Assembly: GCA_045629745.1 (NCBI GenBank)
Contig: JAZQRU010000042.1
Coordinates: forward strand, 100,039 to 164,038
DNA from: Eubacteriales bacterium
GTDB lineage: Bacteria > Bacillota > Clostridia > Oscillospirales > CAG-272
Direction of reading: 5' to 3'
DNA: 64,000 bases
Shown: in pieces, positions 5,484 through 13,097 of the stretch
Layout: each line of letters opens with the position of its first letter
Numbering within the stretch: the first letter of the stretch is position 1
Notes under the pieces: generated by a model
What the model was told of the DNA's origin: nothing
What the model saw: only the letters and a program-made list of their open reading frames with translations
Database searches by the model: none
Made by a program: the position numbers and the translations under genes

Positions 5484-8400
5484 ATGAAAACAATGAAAAA
5501 GCTTTGCCTTTGCATTCTTGCTCTCTTGCTTGTTTCCATAACGGTATTCGGTTTTACCGCCTGTGGAAATGAGGAAGCGGAAGAATGCGTACACGAATGG
5601 GGCGAATGGGAAACCGTTACCGAGCCCACTTGTGTTACGGCAGGAAAAGAAAAGAGAGTATGTGCGTTAGACACCGAGGGCGCTCACCCCGAAGAACGCG
5701 AAATCCCGATGCTTGGGCATACTTTCACAACTTACGTCAGCAATAACGACGCAACCTGTACTGCCGACGGAACTAAGTCCTCGGCTTGCGACGTATGCGG
5801 CGAAGTCCAAAAATCTAGTGACTTCGGCTCTATGCTCGCTCACACGTTTGATAAGAAGGTTGCAACCGAGGCTTATTTGAACACGCCCGCCGATTGCGAC
5901 GATAAGGCTACATATTTCTATTCTTGCGAGTGCGGAGAAAAAGGAACTAAGGTATTTGAAGACGGAGATTATCTCCACACTTATGCCGAAGCTTTTTCCT
6001 ATGACGAAAATAAACACTGGCACGCTTGCGTATGCACCGATGCTTCGTGCATCTGCGACAAGCGCACAGGCGAAGCAGAGCACGTATGGGACGATGGCAA
6101 GGTAGCGGCCCAGCCTACCTGCGACACCGAGGGCAACTTCGTTTACACCTGTGCTTGTGGCGCTACGAAAAGCGAGCTTATTCCCTTTAAGCATACGCTT
6201 GCCCGCACTGCAAAGAAAAATGCTACGTGCGAGGCAGACGGTAATATCGAATACTGGCACTGCTCGGACTGCGGCAGATACTTCACCGATGCAGAGGCTA
6301 AGACCGAAATTATCGCGGATGCTATCATAATAAACAAACTCAGTCACGATTTTGCAGGCGGCAATTGGATTTGCACAGAAACCGCGCACTACAAGAAGTG
6401 TGCCGACTGTAATACAACCGACGAAGAGAATGCAAAGGCCCACGATTTCACGCCTATGTCAACGTCACATCAGCATTGGCAGGGATGCGAGTGCGGTTAT
6501 AAGAAAGACGTTCAAGACCATAGCCTAACCTTAAGAATGAATAGTGAAAAACACTGGTTTGAGTGCCTCTGCGGATTCAAGAGTGCAGAACAGGACCACG
6601 AGGAAGCAAGAGATGCAATTCCCAGCTCCTCGAAGGATAACACTTGTTTTGAAGACGGCTATGAAATCCACAAGTGCGCAACCTGTAATCTTGATTTCAC
6701 GAAGATTATTCCTGCGGCTCACTCCGCCCTCAACCACTTTGGCTCGAGCGATGCGACCTGTACCGAAGAGGGCGGCATCGAATACTGGCAGTGCGAGCTT
6801 TGCGATAAGTATTATAAGGATAACGCGGCTACACAGGAAATTCAGCTCAAGGATATTTCCACCGCGCCTCTCGGACACGATTTTGAAAACGGAATACTCA
6901 AGCGCGACGGTGAATACCATTATACCGTTTGTTCAAGAAACGAATGCGGCGTGGTTGATACCGAAAGCAGAGAAGCTCACACCTACGAGTCCGGCTTCAA
7001 TGCAACTCACCACTACGATGCTTGCAGCATTTGCGGATACAAGATAAATGAATCCGAACACGTTTGGGCAAGCTCCACTGTAGAAAGAGAGCCTACCTGT
7101 ACCGTTGAAGGTATCAGAAAGTACACCTGTGAATGCGGAGCTACTAAGGAAGAGGCTATTCCGATTAGACACGAGCTTATTTACGTGGATGCTAAGGCTT
7201 CCACCTGTACCGCAACCGGTAACATAGGCTATTGGTACTGTGCGAAGTGCGAAAAGAACTTCAGCGATTCCTCTGCTCAGAATGAACTGAGTGCAAGTGA
7301 TATAATTACCGATAAGACTCCTCACAACTTTGAAGAGGGCGTTTGGACCTACGATAACGCTAAGCACGCAAAGATTTGTAAGGATTGCGATGCAACGAGC
7401 GAATACAAAAACCACAACTATAATATAAACGGCAAAGATTCTGAAAAGCACTGGAACGAGTGCGAATGCGGATGCAGAATTAACGTTTCCGCCCACGGCC
7501 TCGTTGCAGAGTACATTGATGAAAATACACACTCCATCAGCTGTGTATGCGGATACGGAGTTTCCTCCGCCGAGCACGTTCTTAACGCAGTATACGTAAA
7601 TGATTTTGAGCACAAGCACGCGTGTGTGTGCGGTTATGAAACCGACGTTATGCCGGGCGCGCTCACCGCAGAAGACTATGACGAAAACAGACACGTCTTT
7701 GCTTGCGGCTGCGGTTACTACACCGTAACGGAAAATCACGAGTTATACACCGTTGAGATTGGCATAAGCCACCACCGCCATATCTGCGAATGCGGTTATA
7801 TCTCCGAAATCATTATCGGTGCGGTAACGTACACCCACGACAGCAACGGTCACTTCGGTGAATGCGACTGCGGTTACGACACCGTAGCCGAGAGTCACAA
7901 TTTGACAGTTGGATACACCGACGATACTCAGCACTGGCACGAATGCGAGTGCGGATACGTGACTGAGATAATAAACACCTCCGTAACGATAAAGTACGTT
8001 GACGGACAGTCCTCACTCTACGCGGCGAGCAATACTCTTGGCGGACACTATGCAGAATGCGATTGCGGTTACAGGTCCGAGCTTGATAGCCACACTCTCG
8101 TTGCCGCATACGACGGTGAAAAGCATTACGAAGCTTGCGGCTGCGGCTATATAACGAATGAAGTTAACCATAGCTTCAAGCCCGTTTACGTTTCCGACAG
8201 CGAGCATAAGCACGAGTGCGAGTGCGGCTACGTTTCAGAGACGATTGACGGCGGACTTGGATACAGTCACGACACCATTCAACACTGGGTAGCTTGCGGA
8301 TGTGGCTACACCTTAGAAGCTGAAGACCACACCGTAGAAAGCGGATACAATGAAACCAAGCACTACGAGGGATGCGCTTGCGGTTACATAGAAACCGAGA

Positions 8401-13097: not shown

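Follow-up and report, generated by a model that had tools for sequence, protein, structure and literature searches.

A giant predicted lipoprotein with a long array of putative metal-stapled units related to the putative zinc-binding domains of an IgA protease from Thomasclavelia ramosa

The closest described relatives of the protein reported here are two domains of the IgA protease (IgAse) of Thomasclavelia ramosa, named ZBD1 and ZBD2 (for zinc-binding domain) in one paper (PMC12237041) and CTD2 and CTD4 in another (PMC12415215), and described in 2025 from AlphaFold models only. Both papers model His/Cys zinc sites that link small beta sheets, and both raise the possibility of a new metal-binding fold or of a periscope domain, CTD2/CTD4 being termed 'an uncharacterized periscope domain fold' (PMC12415215). 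These domains were proposed to act as a spacer or 'periscope', and a comparison with EGF-like arrays was drawn (PMC12237041, PMC12415215). We analysed a stretch of 64,000 nucleotides, hereafter the window, from the genome of an Eubacteriales bacterium (assembly GCA_045629745.1, contig JAZQRU010000042.1, positions 100,039 to 164,038). It carries a giant gene (5484..13097, + strand), confirmed as an open reading frame (ORF) of 2,537 amino acids plus stop, and the unit that is repeated along its product is, by sequence similarity, homologous to the putative ZBD1/ZBD2 domains of the T. ramosa enzyme.

The predicted protein starts with a signal peptide and lipobox (residues 1-27, ending in ...VFGFTAC; 5484..5564, + strand). 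The lipobox was recognised with a PROSITE-type pattern, [LIVMFWSTAG](2)-[LIVMFYSTAGCQ]-[AGS]-C, sought inside the first ~40 residues and after a positive n-region and a hydrophobic h-region. The N-terminus, MKTMKKLCLCILALLLVSITVFGFTAC-G, matches this pattern: an n-region MKTMKK is followed by an h-region LCLCILALLLVSITVF and by GFTA-C27, as expected for a substrate of signal peptidase II (SPase II), with Cys27 as the predicted lipidated residue. This bears out the lipoprotein that a sequence-only reading of the same DNA had proposed. The lipoprotein signal is kept in the orthologues and in a paralogue described below, and no twin-arginine motif was found in the signal peptide of the giant protein. 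The composition of the chain is unusual, with 7.6% Cys, 7.4% His (187 His) and a net charge of -281.

We found 61 strict H-x3-C-x-C cores in the giant protein, as compared to 1.08±1.04 (maximum 6) in 2,000 composition-preserving shuffles of it. Gly directly follows the core in 58 of the 61 strict units, and aromatic residues (Trp, Tyr and Phe) are abundant in the units; numbering from c, the first Cys of the core, a Trp occupies c-3 in 32 of them. Cores are spaced 26-27 residues apart, and the autocorrelation of Cys positions has maxima at 26/27, 53 and 79. The mature chain opens with a membrane-proximal base (residues 28-645; 5565..7418, + strand), in which longer modules of the form H...TC...C-x1-2-C are mixed with short ones, and whose first element is a two-ligand cap, C35-x-H37. 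Then comes the central array (residues 646-2170; 7419..11993, + strand), made of 57 contiguous mini-units of 26-27 residues, namely 54 strict cores, two C-x-H cores (C-E-H) and one C-x3-C, with a single insertion of 11-12 residues. The last 367 residues form a distal C-terminal region (residues 2171-2537; 11994..13094, + strand), where long and short modules are mixed and where no wall-sorting or other anchor motif was found. In the flanks of the central array, 7 additional strict cores are accompanied by about 14 C-x2-C variants, so the earlier count of 59 central cores and about 10 in the flanks was close, if not exact. A higher-order repeat is visible in the string of unit types (defined below): residues 1375-1935 (9606..11288, + strand) consist of seven copies of a three-unit super-unit A-B-B, about 80 residues or 240 nucleotides long. 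In the DNA, the best pair of copies is 9563-9764 versus 9803-10004, with 79% identity over 202 nucleotides at a 240-nucleotide spacing.

Scans of the whole giant protein against Pfam and NCBIfam returned sub-threshold noise only, and the unit has no model in the copies that were searched. The sequence-only reading recognised no named domain, but the unit has a precedent. The only sequence match in the PDB is chain 9qa6_A, the T. ramosa IgAse (UniProt Q9AES2). A phmmer search with the whole protein aligned residues 31-320 to residues 853-1097 of the chain (E 1.4e-7), and a profile made of six units matched residues 1078-1135, within ZBD2 (E 1.2e-5, …NHWHECNCGDKKDEAAH…HEECKICGYK). Beyond this similarity, the giant protein shares with the IgAse domains, at the sequence level, four-ligand His/Cys sets at the interfaces of subdomains and, in structural models, small antiparallel beta units that are elongated and without structural homologue (AlphaFold2 and Foldseek, see below). 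In both cases metal binding at the interfaces is predicted, and in both the domains belong to a secreted surface protein of Bacillota. The differences are in scale and layout. IgAse has 3 + 2 sites around an Ig-like barrel, a catalytic head and an LPXTG-type C-terminal anchor, whereas the giant protein has about 80 predicted sites, 57 minimal units in one run, no head, an N-terminal lipid and the A-B-B super-repeat.

The module is widespread. With the whole protein as query, 623 proteins were recovered, mostly 1.4-4.3 thousand residues long and with signal peptides or lipoboxes; the domains found in them include Listeria-Bacteroides repeats, Big_2, leucine-rich repeats (LRR), dockerin/cohesin, SLH and pectate lyase. 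An exhaustive HMMER search of a prokaryote-dominated genome and metagenome library with the six-unit profile yielded 1,769 cluster representatives with E ≤ 1e-3; for 121 of them E was ≤ 1e-30. The representatives are mostly large proteins of signal-peptide or lipoprotein type, and a scan of six showed either LRR, nuclease or CHAP domains or no domain at all. In some proteins, a run of 10-21 units stands alongside BspA-type LRR, Endonuclease I or CHAP domains. The relative P0124, 5,219 residues long (9.2% His, 6.6% Cys), has 107 H-x3-C-x2-C and 10 H-x3-C-x-C cores, about 117 in all, so that the giant protein is surpassed in array size within this type of module. The remark that arrays of such length are normally an intracellular eukaryotic feature thus does not hold for this module. 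Among the top matches of the whole protein, a comparably long C-x-C array was found only in an orthologue, P0001. The giant protein itself had no entry in the protein collection by exact look-up, while its paralogue is present there, without a recorded gene position, and scans of genome and metagenome contig collections gave distant relatives only. As a separate observation, the family PF27618.1, which the Pfam copy searched does not contain, is precomputed on P0419-P0426, which are 677-residue relatives of the base region, and is not recorded for P0001; part of the module set may be covered by this perhaps recent family.

The units bear four potential metal ligands at fixed spacing, as had been noticed from the sequence. 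A His is present at c-4 in every strict unit, and a further His at either c-2 (type A, HxHxCxC, n=15) or c+11 (type B, n=43). Only 1 unit has both and 2 have neither, a mutual exclusion with a Fisher p of 3e-11. In one of the latter two a His is found three residues later, past an insertion, and the other sits immediately before the only unit with a disrupted C-x-C. The Cys pair completes the set. The two units with C-E-H in place of C-x-C favour a metal site, because a Cys-to-His swap keeps a metal ligand but destroys a disulfide. Conservation is concentrated on these positions: relative to three orthologues, ligand columns are 99.5%, 99.1% and 96.1% identical, versus 60%, 42% and 33% for the other columns of the array, and the His positions are conserved as well as the Cys positions.

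Two models of the sites were compared, in which the four ligands come either from within each unit, or from the His pair of unit n and the Cys pair of unit n+1. For the C-terminal ends of arrays, statistics were collected on 270 proteins, counting only units preceded by a mini-unit, since longer ...EYWxCxxC modules confound the unrestricted test. The His at c-4 was kept in 1293 of 1454 internal units, which have another Cys pair after them, compared to 31 of 86 array-terminal units (p = 1e-28), and the tail His in 1375 of 1454 and 34 of 86, respectively (p = 6e-38). Array-terminal units typically read [YF][YFW]WxEC.... At the opposite end, 58 of 78 array-initial units carried a two-ligand cap (HxH or CxH), versus 280 of 2341 internal ones (p = 5e-35). 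The giant protein, which begins with C35-x-H37, ends with such a terminal unit (…ENH SMNTITEGNYYWTECNCGF…; 13005..13094, + strand): the Cys pair is present and both His positions are lost, with a Tyr at c-4 and no tail His, the protein ending in …NYYWTECNCGF…. P0001 and the paralogue have the same C-terminal cap. In addition, the structural model places the c-4 His and the first Cys of a unit four positions from each other, within a single DSSP strand or at its end, which would put them ~13 Å from each other, too far for one tetrahedral site. From the statistics at both ends and the strand register, each metal site most probably bridges two consecutive units, rather than being self-contained as in the zinc-knuckle-like unit initially envisaged. 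The zinc sites in the IgAse models likewise lie at interfaces. Adding the 81 close Cys pairs of the mature chain, the two C-x-H units and the N-terminal cap site, about 80-85 sites are predicted in the giant protein.

Structure prediction with AlphaFold2 (AF2) was done on two segments. For six units (residues 1370-1538), starting from an 18-row alignment of non-overlapping windows taken from the giant protein and P0001, a model with a mean predicted local distance difference test score (pLDDT) of 89.6 and a predicted template modelling score (pTM) of 0.58 was obtained, showing one beta hairpin and two isolated bridges in each unit. In the base (residues 28-345; pLDDT 86.1, pTM 0.44), nearly everything is short beta strands, with a single 4-residue helix over 318 residues, and no globular domain was seen. 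A Foldseek search of the PDB with both models gave no real fold match: the best TM-scores were 0.19 and 0.11, with root-mean-square deviations of 18-55 Å. Very large deviations against compact targets are those expected for an elongated query. All that came back were spurious matches to beta-propellers (TM-scores ≤0.19).

Several known families with Cys and His motifs were considered and set aside. The classical C2H2 zinc finger (C-x2-4-C-x12-H-x3-5-H) does not fit the H...H/C-x-C order of ligands, the array model has no helix, and no Pfam zf-C2H2 match was obtained. The CCHC zinc knuckle pattern (C-x2-C-x4-H-x4-C) is absent, the units being H-x3-C-x-C with a period of 26-27 residues. A multihaem c-type cytochrome is excluded by zero CxxCH motifs, and the CxH...CxxH spacing of Rieske proteins was not found in the giant protein. 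Finally, a metallothionein-like protein would have roughly 15-30% Cys, compared to 7.6% here, and aromatics are abundant in the giant protein, with a regular hairpin predicted for each unit.

The giant gene has orthologues of 2,689 residues (L018), 2,605 residues (L022) and 2,099 residues (P0001, on L003), those in L018 and L022 being found by using the orthologues of the paralogue as handles. Their loci are syntenic, beside a polysaccharide-biosynthesis cluster. Relative to the giant protein, the indels among orthologues measure 26, 27, 52, 53 and 81 residues, i.e. 1-3 whole units, so that the variation in repeat number that the sequence-only reading suggested looking for does exist. A shorter candidate, P0121 (1,229 residues), ends inside the array, is probably a contig-end fragment, and was left out of the length comparison. 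Could the array be produced by the assembly, as that reading also asked? Copies of the unit are 60-83% identical to one another in DNA, Tandem Repeats Finder reported no array, and two independent metagenome contigs (L018 and L022) hold full-length collinear orthologues. Given this divergence and these independent full-length copies, repeat collapse or expansion during assembly is unlikely, and we regard the array as real. As a side observation, three short-read contigs that carry the orthologue of the paralogue (L019, L020 and L021) break off inside the array of the giant gene; evidently, this locus assembles with difficulty, and databases probably contain too few of its full-length copies.

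The paralogue lies immediately downstream (13230..15290, + strand). It is a predicted lipoprotein of 686 residues (…VFGLSSC-G) that is equivalent to the base of the giant protein without the array: it is collinear with residues 1-661 at 34% identity. We conclude that the giant protein is a paralogue-like base, to which an array and a 367-residue distal region are added. Orthologues of the paralogue adjoin those of the giant gene in L018 and L022. No hairpin comparable to a terminator was found in the 132-nucleotide gap between the two genes of the window, and they may therefore be co-transcribed.

Comparison with the L022 orthologue (653-8470 of that contig) gave a ratio of nonsynonymous to synonymous substitution rates (dN/dS) of 0.1-0.3 along the whole length. 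The synonymous divergence (dS) is uneven: it is 0.01-0.08 in residues 1-300, 1063-1212 and 2416-2537, and saturated elsewhere, and the 374 nucleotides upstream are almost identical. This mosaic results either from recombination between deeply diverged alleles or from a chimeric short-read assembly. Positive selection as the cause of the divergence of the array was discarded, given the low dN/dS and saturated dS.

Apart from IgAse, three systems can be compared to this protein. The stalks of periscope proteins and fibrillar adhesins (SasG/Aap G5-E, Rib, SHIRT; PMC9704523, PMC9210967) are also tandem arrays of small beta-rich domains whose copy number varies between relatives (by 1-3 units for the giant protein), and they form a long surface rod, as the giant protein is supposed to do; SasG and Aap moreover involve Zn. 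Their repeats, however, are nearly identical in DNA and they end with a functional tip domain, whereas in the giant protein neither near-identical DNA repeats nor a recognisable distal functional domain was found. In Aap, Zn dimerises the protein via surface His, Asp and Glu, while in the giant protein it would be fully coordinated within the chain. Eukaryotic poly-zinc-finger arrays (C2H2/KRAB-ZNF) likewise have tandem units of ~27 residues with 2 Cys and 2 His and a fold that depends on Zn, a dependence that is predicted for the giant protein. The resemblance is convergent: C2H2 fingers are nuclear, adopt a beta-beta-alpha fold and have C-x2-4-C...H-x3-5-H in one unit, as opposed to H...H then C-x-C across units in an all-beta, predicted extracellular protein. 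EGF-like and cbEGF arrays (fibrillin) offer a functional analogy, with many core-poor modules of ~30-40 residues stiffened by cross-links at or near their interfaces. These cross-links are disulfides or Ca2+, instead of the metal thiolate/imidazole sites proposed for the giant protein, and there is no relationship in sequence or fold.

Our favoured reading, held with moderate confidence, is that the giant protein is a rigid stalk or fibril, lipid-anchored, probably stapled by Zn, and without recognisable head domain. We infer metal binding, the identity of the metal, the geometry between units, rigidity, length and biological role as follows. The protein would be exported by Sec, processed by SPase II and anchored by its N-terminal lipid. 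Its mature chain would be a string of small beta-hairpin modules, neighbours being clamped by a tetrahedral metal site. In the central array, unit n would give two His, at c-4 and, depending on its type, at c+11 (B) or c-2 (A), and unit n+1 its C-x-C; the chain would open with the C35-x-H37 cap and close with the Cys-pair unit devoid of His. Some 80-85 staples may thus stiffen a very acidic chain, poor in hydrophobic core, into a rod projecting far beyond the wall. Extrapolation from the IgAse ZBD1 model, for which ~0.85 Å per residue is reported (PMC12237041, PMC12415215), would give the rod a length of some 0.1-0.2 µm. Its likely role would be that of a spacer, a fibril or an adhesin-like surface element, making contacts via its distal C-terminal modules or its whole surface. 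Among the roles offered by the sequence-only reading, a metal-stapled stalk is the one that appears to fit best, in view of the conservation restricted to ligands, the caps, the confident all-beta elongated AF2 models and the use of such units as spacers in multidomain surface proteins.

Zn(II) is the likeliest metal, judging from the tetrahedral-type Cys2His2 ligands, the unfolded export by Sec and the absence of haem or Rieske motifs. Sec substrates cross the membrane unfolded, and acquire only those cofactors that bind spontaneously outside. A Sec-type signal without twin-arginine motif therefore speaks for a free divalent ion rather than for haem or Fe-S clusters.

Several points weigh against this stalk. 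No recognisable head or ligand-binding domain was found with Pfam, NCBIfam, the AF2 model of the base or Foldseek, and the repeat DNA is diverged, unlike that of canonical periscope proteins. The assignment of sites between units comes from statistics and strand register. At one type of junction it does not apply as such: a short unit that comes after a long H…TC…CxxC module cannot take the c-4 His from that module, and some sites of the flanks are therefore intra-module or use other ligands. The ZBDs themselves are not resolved experimentally in IgAse, where the chain is visible only from S32 to N876, and there is no zinc-bound structure (PMC12237041, PMC12415215). Lastly, a monoderm host is deduced only from the names 'Clostridia bacterium' borne by close relatives of the asparaginyl-tRNA synthetase, which is 88-98% identical to proteins of metagenomes and metagenome-assembled genomes, those bearing that name being 88-89% identical.

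Rather than in the rod, the function may reside in exposed non-ligand residues or in the distal modules, the metal serving as a scaffold, as in a fibrillar adhesin or a variable surface antigen. We consider this unlikely, though worth keeping in mind, and it is compatible with the stalk rather than a strict alternative to it. Non-ligand positions are only 33-60% identical between orthologues while the ligands are fixed, the number of units differs among orthologues, and homologous units occur in many large surface proteins of signal-peptide or lipoprotein type. The alleles of the window and L022 are a mosaic of near-identical and saturated blocks, with almost identical DNA upstream; that this mosaicism reflects immune or phage pressure is likewise doubtful. 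No sign of positive selection was seen, dN/dS being 0.1-0.3 everywhere, no known adhesive domain is present, and the mosaic could be a chimera, as L022 is a short-read Logan contig.

A more speculative extension of the stalk, to which we give still less weight, is a surface fibril gated by metal. Its extension over ~0.1-0.2 µm and its stiffness would exist only with the ~80 Zn staples filled and the thiolates reduced; sequestration of Zn by the host, or O2, would collapse or unzip it. Such a fibril would be both an environmental switch and a sizeable extracellular pool of zinc.

An improbable explanation is that the protein captures, stores or buffers metal, its ~80 His2Cys2 sites acting as an extracellular sponge or zincophore-like reservoir for Zn (or Ni, Co, Cu). 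A single chain with 81 close Cys pairs, 187 His and a net charge of -281 could suggest so, as could the lack of any recognised enzymatic or binding head in a giant protein, and the lipid anchor would place it near the membrane, where importers sit. However, homologous units serve as linkers, a few at a time, in nucleases, LRR proteins, CHAP amidases and the IgA protease, and the logic of the N- and C-terminal caps is that of sites built for joining neighbouring modules. No metal transporter, Zur-type element or riboswitch adjoins the giant gene, and an Rfam scan of the whole window was empty. Fully tetra-coordinated Cys2His2 Zn sites typically exchange slowly. Altogether, no specific support was found for the capture or buffering role that the sequence-only reading had also put forward.

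Still less credible is a protein without metal, in which the Cys would be free or engaged in disulfides and the His/Cys pattern would be a motif for folding or cross-linking, e.g. through vicinal-type C-x-C disulfides. Disulfides are common in extracellular proteins, as this one is predicted to be, and IgAse stayed monodisperse only with a reducing agent, meaning that its cysteines oxidise readily (PMC12237041). Yet His is conserved like Cys, and the fourth ligand alternates between two His positions; Cys is changed to His in two units, and an HxH N-terminal cap can ligate a metal but cannot form a disulfide. No disulfides are seen in the IgAse structures or models (PMC12237041, PMC12415215). 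The hosts, moreover, are anaerobes: the window encodes a formate-tetrahydrofolate ligase, and the close relatives are metagenome-assembled genomes of Clostridia.

Finally, an electron conduit or redox sensor made of Rieske-like [2Fe-2S], rubredoxin-like Fe or Cu sites deserves hardly any credence: one His pair and one Cys pair per site formally make a Rieske ligand set, in an anaerobe, but a pre-assembled cofactor is not exportable with a Sec-type signal lacking a twin-arginine motif, neither Rieske spacing nor CxxCH is present, no Fe-S or cytochrome maturation genes adjoin the giant gene, and one site per hairpin of 26-27 residues is probably too sparse for efficient electron tunnelling.

The module, known since 2025 from IgAse, is not rare but is barely characterised. 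What is new here is the scale (57 contiguous minimal units, about 80 sites), the lipid-anchored layout without head, the A-B-B super-repeat, and a ligand bookkeeping rule that supports stapling between units across the family. If the staples are real, the giant protein would be a clean natural model of a widespread extracellular metal-binding fold (1,769 representatives, unmodelled in the Pfam copy that was searched), since an array this long, regular and nearly pure lends itself to measuring stoichiometry, mechanics and structure. The rule for the ligands (a two-ligand N-terminal cap, two His passed forward by each unit, a His-less C-terminal cap) predicts the residues of each site, and makes it simple to spot arrays of this kind in other proteins and to set their limits. 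The finding would also mean that many gut Clostridia build surface stalks with zinc, instead of disulfides or isopeptide bonds, and that the architecture of their cell surface is tied to zinc availability and redox state in the gut. Were the metal-gated fibril true, the giant protein (~80 sites) and P0124 (about 117 cores) would count among the largest arrays of structural zinc in one polypeptide, larger, to our knowledge, than the biggest eukaryotic zinc-finger arrays.

The expression signals of the giant gene were read from the sequence. A Shine-Dalgarno AAGGAG (5471..5476, + strand) stands 8 nucleotides before the ATG and is invariant in four orthologous loci. A putative promoter (5408..5436, + strand) combines a -35 TTGCTT (5408-5413), a 17-nucleotide spacer and an extended -10 TGtTATAAT (5428-5436); all four orthologous loci retain this -10, as well as TTGC in the -35. 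This promoter is not listed by a consensus scanner, because its -35 fits the consensus at only 3 of 6 positions. A palindrome over the -35, TTGCTTTTTAAAAGCAA, was considered as an operator and dropped, as it is not kept in L018 or L003. Upstream, a terminator-like hairpin (5146..5162, + strand; hairpin listing) closes the preceding gene, and the giant gene therefore has its own promoter region. Within intergenic DNA that is otherwise diverged between orthologous loci, a block at about 5359-5402 (+ strand), TTTGTGCATnTTGyCTAkCTTTT…ATTTTACGC, ~80-125 nucleotides 5' of the ATG, is kept in all four loci. This block, which like the rest of the window has no match in Rfam, could be a regulator binding site.

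Beyond the paralogue, a second terminator-like hairpin with a 12-bp stem (15303..15329, - strand) separates it from a convergent polysaccharide-biosynthesis cluster; the stem, being palindromic, could work in either direction. Acyltransferases and this cluster are the neighbours of the giant gene. Other genes of the window include fhs (formate-tetrahydrofolate ligase), murC and mgtE. Farther away, at 54295-62205 (- strand), lie four tandem ORFs of 615-682 residues without Pfam or NCBIfam match and with weak mutual similarity, each with a signal peptide and a lipobox (LFVSC-S, ALSSC-T, MFVSC-A and LLTGC-N). The polysaccharide cluster itself spans about 15436-34574 (- strand), and in one of its ORFs (771 residues; 21387-23702, - strand) a polysaccharide pyruvyl transferase domain is joined to 4Fe-4S ferredoxin and FrhB/FdhB-like domains.

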